From a virus, in the UHGV virus genome UHGV-0117802: a stretch of DNA of 11,216 bases; one strand, given 5' to 3'. Below, piece by piece: positions 211 to 9,200 of the stretch (position 1 is its first letter; each line of letters starts with the position of its first letter). The position numbers and the translations under genes were made by a program. The notes under the pieces were generated by a model that saw only the letters and a list, made by a program, of their open reading frames with translations, did not search any database and was not told the origin of the DNA.

Positions 211-1608
211 TTAAGCTTTAATATATTTAAATTTGAAAGGATTCGCGTTAGGATCTAATGGTTTTATTACGCCCTCCTCCCTTAACTTTTGCAATGCCTT
301 TTTAACCTTTTGAAGGTCATCTTCGCCACTTAATTGTCTAACCAACTTATTTGTGAGCTGTCCCGTTGGATTTTCTTTAAAATAATTAATAATCACATCC
401 TCAATTGAGGCTATTGTTTGATGCTTAACTATTACAACAAAATTATTGCCCCTTTCTTCAAATACCGGGGCTACCAACCCGGCCTTACGCAATTCATTTT
501 TTGCAGTATCAAGCCCCTCACCAATATCATGGTTCACTGGATTGGGAAGTTTATGCAACAAACGCACTAAATTTGGATTACGAGAAAACCGCTCTTCATA
601 TAAATTATTAATAGTCATGTATCCAGGCAATCTGCCTGGACTTTGAACTTCAATCCGGTTGTCATAAACTTTTACGTGCACATCATCCTTTTGGCTGTAA
701 TCTCTATGAATAACAGCATTAACTAATATTTCCTTCAATGCTTCTGCAGGATAGCTAAGTTTTACTAGATTTTCGCCGTCTTTGAATGATGCTCCATCAA
801 CATATTCTTTTACTTTTGCTATTGTATTTAAAATAACCACTTCAAGTGGCCCCTCAATCGTTACAGGATCTTCCTGTAATTGTTCACGTTTGTACTCTGC
901 TTCAGTTGTTCTAAGCCGATATACTTTTACAGCACATCGAGTATCTAAACATCCTTGAGGCTCTTCATCAAATAGTAAAACACAGCCTACATTCGGGACA
1001 AATTCACCATCTTTCTTAGTTAACAGTCGTTGTTTTTTTAAAAAAACTCTCGGTGACTGAGTCGTTCCTATTCTACGTAAATAATCAGAATAATATTCAC
1101 TTTCAAGAATATCTTCTACTTCAACTATATCCACTGCTTTTTTTTCATAAGGTTCTGCGCCTTTAGAATAGGAAAGCTGAGTAATTCGCTCACCTTTTAT
1201 TTTTAATTTTTGCGCGTTAGCTCTTATAAAGCAATCGCCAGAGGCCGTGTAATGAACCTTGGGGCTTTTTGGTATATCCACATGTAAAATCAATCCATTG
1301 GAAGGTGTTCTTAAATATTCCACCTCAACATTCTCAACAGCTGGATTAGTATTTTCCAATAAGGTCGAAATAATAGCATTCGCTTCCTCTGGCTCATTGA
1401 AACCAGATATACGCTCTCTCCCCGAAGCTGCATCCTCTATGCCAATATAAATATTACCGCCATCAGCATTTGCAAATGCTACAAAAGTTTCTTGTAATTT
1501 ATTAGGCGCTATTTGCTTACTTTTAAAATCATTGAAATGATCTTCAGTAGTGTTTAACAACGCCTTAATTTCCTGCGCTGATATATCAATTACTTCATAC
1601 ATCTTCAT
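211..1608 (-). CDS. Schlafen/AlbA_2-like N-terminal domain + HATPase_c_4-like C-terminal domain protein (465 aa), function unknown; AT-rich cargo
   Basis: ATG at 1608 with AAGGA RBS. N-terminal motif ETFVAFANADGGNIYIGIED matches the AlbA_2/Schlafen (divergent AAA) core signature AFAN-x-GG-x-IGV-D. C-terminal EILVNAVIHRDY matches the HATPase_c_4 signature. Base composition is visibly more AT-rich than the phage backbone. Confidence 0.6.
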   Translation of the reverse strand: MKMYEVIDISAQEIKALLNTTEDHFNDFKSKQIAPNKLQETFVAFANADGGNIYIGIEDAASGRERISGFNEPEEANAIISTLLENTNPAVENVEVEYLRTPSNGLILHVDIPKSPKVHYTASGDCFIRANAQKLKIKGERITQLSYSKGAEPYEKKAVDIVEVEDILESEYYSDYLRRIGTTQSPRVFLKKQRLLTKKDGEFVPNVGCVLLFDEEPQGCLDTRCAVKVYRLRTTEAEYKREQLQEDPVTIEGPLEVVILNTIAKVKEYVDGASFKDGENLVKLSYPAEALKEILVNAVIHRDYSQKDDVHVKVYDNRIEVQSPGRLPGYMTINNLYEERFSRNPNLVRLLHKLPNPVNHDIGEGLDTAKNELRKAGLVAPVFEERGNNFVVIVKHQTIASIEDVIINYFKENPTGQLTNKLVRQLSGEDDLQKVKKALQKLREEGVIKPLDPNANPFKFKYIKA

Positions 1609-2879: not shown

Positions 2880-3068
2880 TCAGCTGATGACATCCATTGA
2901 GCGGTTGTATTCGTGGGTTCTGATTTTTGCCATGAGTTCATCTGTCAGTTCAGAAACCCACTGCAGGGCCAGCCCCTTCTCTTCATCACTACACTCACTA
3001 GCCGCTACAAGCTTAAGAAAAAAATCAATGCGCTGGAGCTTCAAAGACTCCAAAAAATAGTCCTGCAT
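2880..3068 (-). CDS. Small SOS-controlled protein (62 aa); probable N-terminal part of a Tum-like antirepressor
   Basis: ATG at 3068 with GGAGG RBS. A LexA box lies 43-58 bp upstream. It overlaps the DinI-like frame over 2883-2941 in a different frame. The position (after gene A, next to cos) is that of 186 tum. Confidence 0.45.
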   Translation of the reverse strand: MQDYFLESLKLQRIDFFLKLVAASECSDEEKGLALQWVSELTDELMAKIRTHEYNRSMDVIS

Positions 3069-3220: not shown

Positions 3221-5593
3221 TTAATACAGGTTCCGCCACTTATCATCTTCCTTCAGACGCTGGTTCCGATAGAAGATACGCAGGCCTGCTCCTGACGGAA
3301 TACTGCCGCCGCGAAGGAGCAAATCGACTTCTTTCTCGCTGCCATCAAATCCCCTGGACTTCAGTTCATAGACGAGCTGCTGTCGCTGATGGTCTGTAAT
3401 TCGCTGTTTGTAGTCTTTACGCCGTTTCGGTTTCACCTGGCGTAACCTTGCAGCCAGTTCCCGGCGCTCTTTTTTGCTCATACTGTGCAGGTAATCGTGC
3501 AACTCCTTGTCATTCATACGGGTAATATCCGTTCTGGAGTCCCCATCAGCTGATTTGTCTTTCCCTTGTTGGTTCAAATTTTCAGCAAGGGGACAGTTAT
3601 TGCCACGAGTCCAAGGGGCGCAAGCGCCCTGGTCGGCTGCCGCCTCCTGAACATCAACGGCCTTACGAACCATTTTCCACTTCACGGCATGAGTGCAGAT
3701 CTTGCCCTCTGCAATAGGTGACCAGATGCCATAAATACGAATGCCGTGATCGCCATAGGCGGTCGGCTCTTCGTTGATTTCATAAGCGGTTCTGATGAGG
3801 TGATATTTGCGGGGAACCAGTACGCCGCCCTGCTTCATGATGTAGGTGGCAAAACAACCAGCATCAGCAGCAGCCAGGATGGCATCAAGGCGCGGGTTAT
3901 CCAGTACCGGCGCACCTGCTTTTTTGTCCCCCTGTTGCCTTGCCGCCTGACCAGCCAGCAATCGCAGTTCACGGTAAGCCTGACGCCCCGGAATGCCAAA
4001 GAAGCGGAATTGCTGAACACGATGCAGAGACGCCCAGGCATTAACGTATTCAGCATTATCACGCAGGGATTTCCCCGTTTCCTTGCTGATCTCGCCAGCC
4101 AGACCACGCCCGTCAATGTTCTTACTGATGTATTTCGCGATGTAGCTTGTTGGCGTACCTTTGCGCGGGTTAATCAACTCAGACTTAAAGCGCGGCCCAG
4201 TGTTATTGCCCAGTTCCTCACGGTCTTCACGGATGGCAAACTTACGCAGTAATGCAGTGATGGCGCGGCGGTCTTTTTTGCGCATAAAACACAACAGGTG
4301 CCAGTGAACTGTACCGTCATGATGCGGCTCAGCCACCCGCACGCCATACCACCGCAATCCGGCTTTGTGCATCGCCTTACGAAATGCAGCAAACATGCCG
4401 ACTAGATAATCACTGCTTTGTCTTACCGTCGCATTTGTCCAAGTTGGGTTGGGCCTGCCATTATTTAGCGTGGAATGGAAACGTGACGGACAGGTGATGG
4501 TGTAGAAAACGGCGCAGTCACCGCGCATTTCCGCGATAAGCTCCAGGCCTTTAACACAGGCCATCATCTCATTGCGGCGATGCGCAGGGTTGCTGCTGCT
4601 GGCGTTTACCACATCCTCCATGTCCAGCGTGTCGCCGTCTTCGTTCACCAGTTCATGAGAACGAAAAAACTCCAGCGACTTACGGCGCTGCTCACGTTTA
4701 TGCATCACGGCTTCATAGCTGACATAGGGAGATGCTTTTTTGCTGACCAGGCAGACAGCACGCAACTGCTCTTCCCGCCATTCGCAACGCATCTTCCATA
4801 ATTTCCGGTACCACCAGTCAGCGCACAACATACGCGCCAGCGAACCCGGAATGAGTTCATAGGGCACGGGTTTACGGCGGTTTCTTTTCCGGCGGAGTTG
4901 CTCAAACGCAGGCGGGATGACATCCAGACGCAGGGTTTCCGCTGCCACCTTTTCCCATGTCTTGCGGATTTCTTCTGGCTTAACGTCATCGGTGACATAC
5001 AAATCGCCACAAGCTGCATCAAGGCACATGCTCATATGCGCAGCTACCAGGGTGGACAGGCGTTTCACCTGATCCTGACTCATTTCAGGCAGGATCAGCA
5101 GGCCGTCCAGCCCTTCATGGCTTGCCATAAAGCGAAAAGAAGTGGATAGCTGACAGTCGCGTACATGCTCCAGCCGTTCCAGACATGGCTTAATCGTCTC
5201 ACGCAAATAGCGGGAATAAGCCTTTGGCCTGCCCAGGCTGCTGAAGTATTCAATACGTTGCATCAGTGGCTTGCTGATATGGGAAGGCTGGGCATTGACG
5301 TCCGCCAGAATGACCATATCTGGATTAAAACGCTGCTGCTCATGCGCCAGCTTTGCCCGACTAATGAGCTTATCCTGCTCCATTTCGCGCTGGACAGGAT
5401 CACGGGATTCATTAAAGAAATAACGCTCCCAGACCTGATCACTCAGTGCCTCGCGGCGCAGCTGTTCCTGCTCGTTATCGGCAGCGTACAGAGCGATCAG
5501 GTTTGAAAGCGCAGAAACTGAAGATTGCTCTTCTGTCTCTACGTAAGGATTGATTGCTTTTTTCTCAGCATTCCAGGAATAGCTGTAGTTCAT
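3221..5593 (-). CDS. A: Replication initiation protein A (P2 gpA / 186 A family rolling-circle HUH endonuclease), about 790 aa
   Basis: HUH motif in [10 protein letters not shown] and the two-tyrosine motif YIAKYISK, typical of P2 A / phiX174 A type Rep proteins. Size and position in the early operon fit. The track start at 5644 is TTG; ATG at 5593 overlaps the upstream stop as TAATG and has a GGAG upstream. Confidence 0.85.
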
Positions 5594-6423
5594 TACGCAA
5601 TCTCCAGTTCGAGCTGTGAAGGCTGCAAACCATTCGACAGCCAATCAGAAACTGAAGGTGGGCGAACAGCTTCAATTGCACCTTTTAAAATTGCGCAACG
5701 GTTTTTCAGAATGACAGCTTTCAGCTCCTTTTCCGTCAGATTGCGCGAATACTCAGCCTCCTGAATAGCCCGCGTCAGCTCAGGATATTTGCTATTAAAT
5801 TTGGGGACATTGCAGGCAAGATTTGTACTGTCGGCAGTCGCCAGTGGGTAATTTCCCAACACACGACCGTCAAGCATGCGCAAACCATGAACAGCTGTTT
5901 TGAAATTGTGTCGGCAATAAATTGCTTCAAAAGCGTCCTGCATACGACGATGCCAGTGCGCAGTTCTGATAGCCGCATATTCACCAGACGATCCAAAGCA
6001 GACACGAGGCCATTCACGACATAGCTCGATAAGCCGATCGATTGACTCGTGCAGATGCCAGACGGGAGTTGCCTTCCCGTAGAACATTTTCGGAACTTCG
6101 TTTATCAGGGCATCATTGTCACGTTCACCTCCGTCCACAACATCAGGAATGACAAAAAAAGCGACCTTAGGATGGTGGTAATAGTTCAGGAGCCATTTAT
6201 AAAAATCACTCCAGTTAATTTTTAGCCCACGCACCCATGCAGAAAATGCGCCGTTATCAATGCCGACGACCTGAGCGTGCTGAATGGACGCCGCAATCTG
6301 ATCTGGTCGTACATAGGAGACGAAAGCGCCAGCTCCGCTCACCGCAATACGATGAACGTCGCCAGCACTTCCCCAGACAGGCGTCCCATGGAAATGATGA
6401 ATTCCGTGGTGCATTTCTTTCAC
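5593..6423 (-). CDS. Unknown 276-aa protein translationally coupled between Dam and gene A; weak TGT/DpdA-like hints only
   Basis: GTG at 6423 overlaps the Dam stop (GTGA) with a GGGGTG RBS 5 nt upstream; ATG at 6414 is an alternative start. The stop overlaps the A start. His-rich N-terminus (HHGIHHFH). IDNGAF and [10 protein letters not shown] loosely resemble the DSGGF and hydrophobic-D motifs of tRNA-guanine transglycosylase-fold enzymes. No zinc-site CxCxxC. Confidence 0.55.
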
Positions 6424-7274
6424 ACTTGCACCCCGAAAATAACAGTAGAGTCACGTCCCCTACTAAAATCGGCACTAAACCAATTAGCAGATTTAGTGGC
6501 AATCATCTCAGTTGCAAATTTTCCCTCCCCCGCTGTAACGCCGATGCTGCGTTTCGCCCTGATGTAGTGGTGAGTGAAATTACGATAAAGGGACCGGGTC
6601 AAAGACGTGTTACTGTTAGAAACAATGACCGGATGTCCTTCTGATGACCGATGTTCAAGAATGGATGCCAGGTGATACTGATCATCTTCAGTGAAACCAT
6701 CAGTGTGATAGCCGGAAAACGTACCGTCATAAGGCGGATCGCAATACACCACATCCCCCACCTTCAACATCGCCAGCGTTTCATCAAAGCTGGCGCAGAT
6801 AAACGTTGCCCGCTGGGCTTTCTCTGCAAATGCGCGAATTTCTTTTTCAGGGAAATACGGATTTTTATAATTACCGTAGGGAATGTTGAAATGCCCGCTC
6901 TTGTTATAGCGACATAAACCACGGTAACCGTGACGATTGAGATACAGGAAATATACCGCTTTCATGAAATCAGTAATTTCAGTGGAGTAATTAAACTCCT
7001 GCCTTATGTTGTAATAAGCCACCTCCCTGTTTGCTTCCTCAAATAAAGCTCTGGCACGAGATATAAACGCCTCACAATCAGCAGCAACCTTTTTATAGAG
7101 GTTGATTAAATCAGGATTAATATCCGCAACAAGATAGCTGGGGTAATCCGTCTCCATCATCACTGCACAGGAACCCGCGAAAGGTTCAACCAGTCGCGGG
7201 CCAGCAGGAAGATGCTTTTTCAGTTCGGACATTATGGCGGTTTTATTTCCTGCCCATTTCAGGATGGTGCTCAT
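6420..7274 (-). CDS. dam: Dam-family DNA adenine (GATC) N6-methyltransferase
   Basis: [17 protein letters not shown] (FxGxG), [33 protein letters not shown] and VVYCDPPY (DPPY catalytic motif) are near-collinear with E. coli Dam. ATG at 7274 with GGAGGTG RBS; the track start at 7334 is TTG. Confidence 0.88.
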
Positions 7275-7498
7275 ACAGCACCTCCGTTGTAATGTTTGCC
7301 TTTCAGCTCTGCGATTTCCTGACAGGTAATGCAAAGCTGCACACCCGGAATGGCACGGCGGCGTGCTGGCGGAATTGGCGCTTCACACTCAACGCAAAGC
7401 ACGCGGGACACGCCCGGCGTTTTGGCACGGGCAGCACGGATATGGCGTTGGCGTTCTTCTTCAACGCGCTGCTGTACGAGATCCATTGCATCAGCCAT
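7271..7498 (-). CDS. TraR/DksA-family C4 zinc-finger protein (75 aa)
   Basis: CVECEAPIPPARRRAIPGVQLCITC gives a CxxC-N17-CxxC zinc ribbon as in phage/plasmid TraR-like proteins. AGGAG RBS. ATGA overlap with the Dam start. Confidence 0.7.
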   Translation of the reverse strand: MADAMDLVQQRVEEERQRHIRAARAKTPGVSRVLCVECEAPIPPARRRAIPGVQLCITCQEIAELKGKHYNGGAV

Positions 7499-9075: not shown

Positions 9076-9200
9076 GATGCAACATTCCTCGTTTAATGAT
9101 GATTAATCAGGACGAATACGGATCGTTTGTATTTTGTGAACACCATAAACATACGATCGCACAGTGAAATCGTCAAGATAAAAGTTCACTTGGAGTGACC
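9076..9200. promoter_or_regulatory. Lysis-lysogeny switch region between apl and cI (promoters and operators)
   Basis: Candidate leftward promoter on the minus strand: TTGACG (9171-9176) - 17 bp - TATGTT (9148-9153). Direct repeats ATACGGATCG (9116-9125) and ATACGATCG (9151-9159), each containing GATC. Inverted GTGAAC (9136-9141) / GTTCAC (9184-9189). Confidence 0.5.

Follow-up and report, generated by a model that had tools for sequence, protein, structure and literature searches.

The 11,216-nt stretch of DNA analysed here (virus genome UHGV-0117802; hereafter, the window) corresponds to the early/replication arm of a P2/186-like Escherichia coli prophage. The relevant genes all lie on the minus strand, and the gene order is integrase, CI repressor, apl/cox-like, CII, Fil, DUF5347, DUF2732, TraR, Dam, X, A, DinI-like, cargo genes and the end of the portal gene. 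Our subject is X, a 276-aa protein encoded at 5593–6423 (minus strand, from a GTG at 6423), between the gene for a 284-aa Dam-family N6-adenine DNA methyltransferase (6420–7274, minus) and replication gene A, which encodes a 790-aa rolling-circle initiator nickase (3221–5593, minus; PF05840, E 1.2e-127; PHROG 91). Sequence comparison places X in the known phage DpdA family (PHROG 887), to which the validated CAjan DpdA also belongs; X is probably a 'singleton' phage DpdA, that is, a minimal, zinc-less DNA-guanine transglycosylase with the (β/α)8 fold of the tRNA-guanine transglycosylases (TGTs), produced from the early lytic operon of the prophage.

X is translated within a string of overlapping genes, traR-dam-X-A, whose successive stop/start overlaps are ATGA, GTGA and TAATG. 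The first of these, an addition to the initial annotation of this DNA, involves a TraR/DksA-type zinc-finger gene (7271–7498, minus; PF01258, E 4.4e-11), the stop codon of which overlaps the Dam start at a junction reading GTATGA. The two overlaps flanking X had been described previously, and direct reading of the junctions bears them out: the Dam/X junction reads CAAGTGTGAAA, in which the Dam TGA overlaps the X GTG out of frame (CAA GTG TGA; GTG AAA), and the X/A junction reads GCGTAATGAAC (GCG TAA TG AAC), in which the TAA of X shares base 5593 with the ATG of A, thereby setting the limits of gene A given above. PGAP places the start of X three codons downstream, at ATG 6414, to give a 273-aa 'hypothetical protein' (WP_001420002.1); however, a GTG or ATG start overlapping the upstream stop is kept at this position in several other clades, and this speaks for the coupled GTG. 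The sole sigma-70-like match on the minus strand from the cI/apl divergence to gene A is a candidate early lytic promoter at 9148–9176, upstream of apl and identified by consensus match only, and terminator-like matches occur at chance level only; a single early transcript, apl-cII-fil-...-traR-dam-X-A, initiated at this promoter is plausible.

X matches PHROG 887 ('queuine tRNA-ribosyltransferase') over its full length with an E-value of 2.4e-96, and the same model also scores the DpdA proteins of CAjan (8.2e-96), MED16 (3e-70) and 7-11 (7.1e-74), whereas no Pfam, NCBIfam or PADLOC model detects any of the four. A tblastn search of 50,697 phage records with X matched 105 records, the best being the P2/186-like Salmonella phages SI22, SW9 and SEN1 (∼76% identity); other homologues were found in Flyfo siphovirus Tbat1_6 (61%), in Salmonella phage 7-11 (gp032; 34%) and in the P22-like/lambdoid phages BTP1, SPN3UB and SfI (∼40% over the barrel core). 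In a pairwise comparison, the DpdA of Pantoea phage MED16 (gp38) is 55% identical to X (E 1e-106). The best tblastn relatives are phages of the type that Hutinet et al. (2019) call 'singleton DpdA', and Supplementary Data 1 of that study lists DpdA proteins from SEN1 (YP_009217891), 7-11, SPN3UB, BTP1 and SfI (PMC6884629). Moreover, SEN1 gp38 and SW9 gp39 were reported as the closest viral homologues of MED16 DpdA, which itself matched Thermotoga maritima TGT in HHpred at 99.18% (PMC8306585), and RefSeq phage records label the SEN1 and SW9 proteins 'queuine tRNA-ribosyltransferase'. X can, therefore, no longer be regarded as the unknown protein of the initial annotation. The family is large: an exhaustive HMMER scan of 1.84 billion representatives returned 555 clusters.

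The link to a genetically validated enzyme comes from profile comparison. We built one alignment of close homologues (A1) and one of a diverse set with 87 members aligned (A2), and hhalign paired the 87-sequence profile with CAjan DpdA over 161 columns (probability 98.6%, E 1e-15), this link to phage DpdA being recovered only with CAjan DpdA as the hhalign target. The aligned motif pairs are DNGAF with DSGAF, WHLHE with FHFGE, VHGL with LHAF, and ADST with CDSS. Deletion of dpdA in CAjan abolishes 2′-deoxy-7-cyano-7-deazaguanosine (dPreQ0) in the phage DNA (PMC6884629).

Within X, the conserved residues all map to the C-terminal ends of the predicted strands, which form the catalytic face of a TIM barrel. 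The His-rich N-terminus remarked on in the initial annotation does comprise five histidines in the first 12 residues (H5, H6, H9, H10 and H12), although it is not a loose tag: H10 and H12 form part of a conserved motif, HH[FY]HGTP, located where strand 1 ends (HHFHGTP, residues 9–15; 6379–6399, minus). In this motif, close homologues show no variation at H10, H12, G13 and P15, and at least 90% of the diverse set retain H12 and G13. DNGAF (residues 56–60; 6244–6258, minus), which lies where strand 3 ends, would provide the general acid/base, D56, and a stacking phenylalanine, F60, and it aligns to LDSGAF of CAjan DpdA. Following strand 4 is IPDV (residues 92–95; 6139–6150, minus), with the invariant D94; either this residue or the acidic residue 97 would be the base-recognition Asp, and hhalign pairs the CAjan Asp with position 97. 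Strand 5 carries WHLHE (residues 122–126; 6046–6060, minus), whose H123 shows no variation and whose E126 persists in at least 90% of family members; both residues recur in the FHFGE of CAjan DpdA. Strand 7 carries HGLRML (residues 179–184; 5872–5889, minus), with H179 aligning to a His of CAjan DpdA and being the positional analogue of H226 in Cap10 (see below). Finally, strand 8 carries ADSTN (residues 197–201; 5821–5835, minus), in which the proposed nucleophile, D198, falls within the segment aligned to CDSS. Across the 87 diverse members, D94 and H123 are invariant, and at least 90% keep H12, G13, D56, N57, A59, P93, G98, N103, P120, V121 and E126, and also G144, H179, L181, R182, P193, D198 and S199. 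The putative catalytic constellation of D56, F60, H123, E126, H179 and D198-S199 is invariant or at least 90% kept among these relatives and identical in CAjan DpdA, with D56, H123, E126, H179 and D198-S199 being paired directly by hhalign. On this alignment evidence, X keeps the presumed acid/base Asp (D56), the two family histidines (H123 and H179) and the presumed nucleophilic Asp (D198). The initial annotation had loosely likened IDNGAF (residues 55–60) and a second segment (residues 89–98) to the DSGGF and catalytic-Asp regions of the TGT fold. Both segments are present, and the first equivalence stands (DNGAF being the DSGGF/DSGAF motif), but the nucleophile is likely to be D198 rather than an Asp in the 89–98 segment, which is more likely to function in base recognition. 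As a separate observation, the family-conserved H-x-H of strand 1, H123/H125/E126 of strand 5, H179 of strand 7 and D198 of strand 8 resemble a metal-binding TIM-barrel pattern.

X also has the predicted fold of such an enzyme. An AlphaFold2 model based on 61 homologues (pLDDT 89.1, pTM 0.86) comprises eight alternating strand/helix (β/α) units, consistent with a TGT-like (β/α)8 barrel. Its top Foldseek match was Cap10 (E 5.7e-5), a TGT homologue from type IV cyclic oligonucleotide-based antiphage signalling systems (CBASS). Among viral models (BFVD) there were 31 matches at E<1e-3, and those bearing a name are all phage 'queuine tRNA-ribosyltransferase' proteins; the nt-1 protein R9TGF0 is among the matches, unnamed in BFVD, and the remainder are likewise unnamed. 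As noted initially, X has no membrane character (no hydrophobic segment; maximum Kyte-Doolittle 19-mer 0.84) and no zinc site: there is no CxCxxC motif, the five cysteines are scattered, and 78 residues follow D198. By strand position and spacing, the motif residues would correspond to D95/F99, H181, L236 and D256 of bacterial DpdA (PMC10164549), and to D73, H226 and D248 of Cap10, where H226 is the hydrogen-bond partner of the nucleophile D248 (bioRxiv 10.1101/2025.04.06.647259).

The searches against canonical enzymes were negative. The TGT model PF01702 was unmatched by X and by the 87 diverse relatives in the Pfam search, comparison of the family profile in hhalign with E. coli TGT or a home-made seven-sequence TGT alignment gave probabilities below 1%, and phmmer with X and searches with the A1 and A2 profiles of all PDB sequences returned only noise; the link to canonical TGT therefore rests on the fold and the published HHpred result. 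Another reading is that X is an unrelated TIM-barrel enzyme, such as a metal-dependent hydrolase or an aldolase-like protein, and that its resemblance to TGT and DpdA is generic barrel similarity. We consider this very unlikely; the tentative DpdA-like assignment of the initial annotation is upheld by sequence, profile and fold alike.

If X is a singleton DpdA, it would need a source of base. No que/preQ0 genes were found in the window or in the whole prophage, so the host would have to supply it; 5425 of 5426 complete E. coli genomes have queC, and the other parts of the precursor pathway are assumed, in line with established E. coli biology. Two relatives show an association with queuosine precursors at the level of gene organization. 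The family representative P0209 is a continuous 335-aa open reading frame (ORF) in which a QueD (PTPS) domain is fused to an X-like domain (L106:2840-3847, on a 24-kb JGI metagenome contig), and in Flyfo siphovirus Tbat1_6 a gene of the Vut_1/YhhQ family (the preQ0/queuosine-precursor transporter family) lies directly upstream of the homologue of X (L105:2525-3783). We envisage that X would be made from the early operon after induction and would take a 7-deazaguanine from the host queuosine pathway, either 7-cyano-7-deazaguanine (preQ0) or ADG, from which preQ0 is made. This base would then be exchanged for guanine in double-stranded phage DNA after replication, following the same double-displacement mechanism as TGT and DpdA, presumably through a covalent intermediate between Asp198 and the deoxyribose, with D56 acting as the acid/base. 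The base inserted could be preQ0, with subsequent hydration, or ADG directly. Only a small fraction of the guanines would be marked, probably at a sequence motif, and the mark would be packaged in the virion DNA, where it would most plausibly weaken the next host's restriction or other DNA-sensing defences.

Several considerations weigh against this interpretation. To our knowledge, there is no hydratase partner for a singleton DpdA. The support for activity comes from relatives rather than from X or its P2-like homologues, a sequence link between X and canonical TGT was not reproduced in our analysis, and the residue equivalences with bacterial DpdA and Cap10 derive from strand position and spacing rather than an inspected superposition. 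Furthermore, the DNA of MED16 and 7-11 contains modified base at only ∼0.13% (PMC8306585) and 0.02% (PMC6884629) of G, respectively, in the form of dADG (2′-deoxy-7-amido-7-deazaguanosine) and not dPreQ0. MED16 DNA showed no resistance to the restriction enzymes tried on it (PMC8306585), and phage Orion, which has a singleton DpdA, lacks modification, though its host makes no preQ0 (PMC6884629). Trace dADG, the want of a hydratase and the unprotected MED16 DNA together render the substrate of X, and its biological pay-off, uncertain.

The same low levels of modification would suit an enzyme with the TGT/DpdA fold that acts on something else, be it host tRNA, a protein-linked deazaguanine (as for Cap10) or a free base or nucleoside, with the dADG of the relatives arising as a side reaction. 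That the best structural match of X is a protein-directed TGT homologue accords with this idea, and the close coupling with protein A might point to a partner protein. However, neither a CD-NTase nor a QueC-like Cap9 operon partner is present in the window or the whole prophage, such that the likeness of X to Cap10 is at the fold level only, and a Cap10-like protein-modifying role was rejected. X is also without the zinc part and the C-terminal tRNA-binding part of TGT, the family extends to phages without gene A, and CAjan DpdA, the nearest relative by sequence for which there are genetic data, modifies DNA. On balance, a substrate other than DNA seems unlikely, and we favour the singleton DpdA assignment.

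The genomic context of X was explored in 89 related loci from IMG/VR, GTDB genomes and SEN1. X lies almost always immediately upstream of gene A, and a stop/start overlap between the two (ATGA or TAATG) is kept in ∼80 of the 89, far beyond chance, although these statistics draw mostly on IMG/VR contigs, many of them near-identical (a scan of genome contigs gave only nine loci). The overlap holds in two lineages of A that are only ∼35% identical. Such persistence might indicate that X assists the rolling-circle initiator as an accessory factor needed at the origin or nick site, and that DNA modification is irrelevant. Set against this are the conserved Asp/His constellation, which indicates an enzyme, the X homologues in sipho- and podoviruses without A, and the lack of X in most E. 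coli prophages with this backbone. A search with a 2.1-kb segment (Dam, X and the start of A) matched 1241 of the 5426 complete genomes, most of them over about half of the query, and in the example inspected (L006) Dam directly abuts A with no X. An accessory role of this kind is, therefore, highly improbable.

The upstream partner is less constant. X occurs without Dam in 35 of the 89 loci, the upstream gene then being TraR or DUF5405. In many Dam-less P2/186-like elements, including SEN1 (SEN1_37; L001:4692-4970), the gene just upstream of X encodes a 92-aa DUF5405 protein that matches PHROG 154, annotated as 'replication initiation protein'. Dam itself is nearly collinear with E. coli K-12 Dam, as originally claimed (47% identity over 261 aa, with eight gap positions), and it has the hallmarks of a D12-class methyltransferase: it scores 257.5 bits against PF02086 (E 2e-76) and 318.6 bits against TIGR00571 'dam' (E 3.8e-95; cutoff 114.85), and it contains the DPPY motif (residues 179–182; 6729–6740) and the FxGxG motif (FAGS at residues 32–35). 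Unlike E. coli Dam, it falls below the NF008152 equivalog cutoff (288 versus 441 bits) and has a 20-aa C-terminal tail. The initial annotation had raised the prospect of a second DNA-modifying or Dam-dependent activity in a Dam-X-A unit, and one could go further and propose an obligate two-enzyme system in which X requires or reads GATC methylation. The two genes are indeed adjacent and overlapping in the window, in the E. coli clade and in the clades of 83–84% identity. Nevertheless, in addition to the 35 loci with X but no Dam, X is found in only 107 of the 5426 E. coli genomes (at ≥99% identity in 102 of these), as compared with the 1241 that match the backbone segment, and a different gene can take its place; moreover, the Dam of MED16 is of an unrelated type and lies six genes away from its DpdA. 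An obligate pair is thus rejected on synteny and is, in our estimation, extremely unlikely. The conserved pairing is that of X with A, not of Dam with X, and Dam, a GATC-type methylase to judge by its sequence, forms an independent module of this operon that X does not require as a partner. One further arrangement was seen in a single Logan assembly, namely, a 421-aa protein (P0011) in which the N-terminal part of Dam is joined to residues 48–276 of X; this is possibly a deletion or an assembly artefact.

Since Dam without X and X without Dam both occur, the two are best described as independent cargo in one variable slot. In the P2-like prophages of E. coli, the Dam/A junction exists in three states: it is mostly empty (L006:3233-3236), it contains X in the 107 genomes mentioned above, or, in 38 genomes, it contains a 336-aa PAPS-reductase-domain gene instead (PF01507, PHROG 424; L005:3260-4270). 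In blastn comparisons with L006 and L005, homology between the window and X-less prophages breaks at ∼5518 and ∼6499, inside the N-terminus of A and the tail of Dam, respectively. The exchangeable cassette (5519–6498, minus) therefore comprises the last ∼26 codons of Dam, including the C-terminal tail, the whole of X and the initial ∼25 codons of A. It is conceivable, albeit doubtful, that the zinc-less singleton DpdAs of P2/186-like prophages write only a handful of 7-deazaguanine (ADG) marks per genome, functionally tied to A rather than providing bulk anti-restriction, and that the Dam/A junction is a dedicated, exchangeable 'DNA-modification slot' (empty, DpdA or PAPS-reductase-like) that tunes the epigenetic disguise of temperate phages. 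In such a scheme, the origin/nick region or the newly displaced DNA may be marked or protected, which would explain the translational coupling of X to A.

Published work already describes this family, the fold assigned to it and even the P2-like homologues, and in this respect our finding re-identifies a catalogued family. What is new is the recognition of the E. coli prophage copies as unannotated DpdA-family members, the residue-level alignment to CAjan DpdA, the absence of the zinc site from both proteins, and a description of the Dam/A junction in which one cassette slot has three states and X stays coupled to A. There is also an annotation gap: X resides in a P2-like prophage in 107 of the 5426 complete E. 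coli genomes (∼2%), and PGAP calls all of the E. coli copies listed 'hypothetical protein'. With no Pfam, NCBIfam or PADLOC model recognizing the family, routine annotation overlooks a predicted DNA-hypermodification enzyme. Should X be active, the virions that ordinary E. coli lysogens release would contain 7-deazaguanine drawn from host queuosine precursors. Moreover, a temperate and genetically tractable P2-like coliphage would be a convenient system in which to address the questions surrounding singleton DpdAs, namely, the identity of the base (preQ0 or ADG), the target motif, the sparseness of the marks and the defences that they counter.

Beyond gene A, the window contains further genes of the prophage. 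Downstream of A are a DinI-like gene (PF06183; 2636–2941, minus) and a small ORF (2880–3068, minus), as in 186-type SOS-inducible prophages; the equivalent pair in SEN1 bears the annotations 'UV induction' and DinI. Encoded at 211–1608 (minus) is a protein of 465 aa that combines Schlafen AlbA_2 (PF04326) and HATPase_c_4 (PF13749) domains; it matches PHROG 12156 and gives partial PADLOC matches to pAgo-associated models. Its gene sits between the end of the portal gene and the DinI-like gene, in the tin/old cargo hotspot of P2, which makes it a candidate for a defence gene borne by the prophage; E. coli CUVM3 has it split into two coding sequences. On the opposite strand of the cargo region (2051–2476, plus), a 141-aa ORF with a signal-peptide-like N-terminus matches PHROG 7437 (unknown function) and no Pfam model, and it is kept in related prophages as WP_000834899.1.

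The bacterial and archaeosine TGTs (PF01702) have a zinc site and tRNA-binding extensions, unlike X. Cap10 (PDB code: 9NTN) binds the deazaguanylated N-terminus of a CD-NTase, works with Cap9 and is only 11% identical to X. The bacterial DpdA of the Salmonella Montevideo dpd cluster (PDB code: 7UI4) is a 413-aa protein with a large insertion, Ins8, housing a CxCx2Cx22H zinc site, and it needs the DpdB ATPase (PMC10164549). X has none of these features, and its neighbours are P2/186 early genes only, with neither dpdB nor dpdC-K among them. A missing zinc site might be taken as an argument against a DpdA identity; however, we reject it, as the validated CAjan DpdA (306 aa) is likewise without the motif and without a Pfam match, and the zinc subdomain is, therefore, not defining for phage DpdA. 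X thus lies outside bacterial DpdA and TGT proper, but not outside phage DpdA.

The closest counterparts of X are the singleton DpdAs SEN1 gp38, SW9 gp39, MED16 gp38 and 7-11 gp032 (76, 76, 55 and 34% identity, respectively), and, as in the phages that encode them, the prophage has no preQ0 genes of its own. The liquid chromatography-mass spectrometry data on this group cover MED16 and 7-11, and no P2-like member. X differs from these relatives in having a clade-specific N-terminal leader. SEN1 and SW9 are themselves P2/186-like (Eganvirus); the SEN1 homologue lies directly upstream of, and overlaps, gene A, and the SW9 match adjoins its replication gene in the same way, although in SEN1 the upstream gene is DUF5405 and not Dam. 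CAjan encodes its own FolE, QueD, QueE and QueC together with a preQ0 transporter, and ∼32% of its G is replaced (PMC6884629), whereas X would rely on the host for its base and has relatives that modify <0.2% of G. Despite a pairwise identity of only ∼22% between X and the DpdA of Escherichia phage CAjan (gp35; a DpdA1 enzyme, as is that of phage 9g), X shares with CAjan DpdA the absence of a zinc site and of a Pfam match, membership of PHROG 887, and the motif series DxGAF, FH.xE, H and DS[ST].

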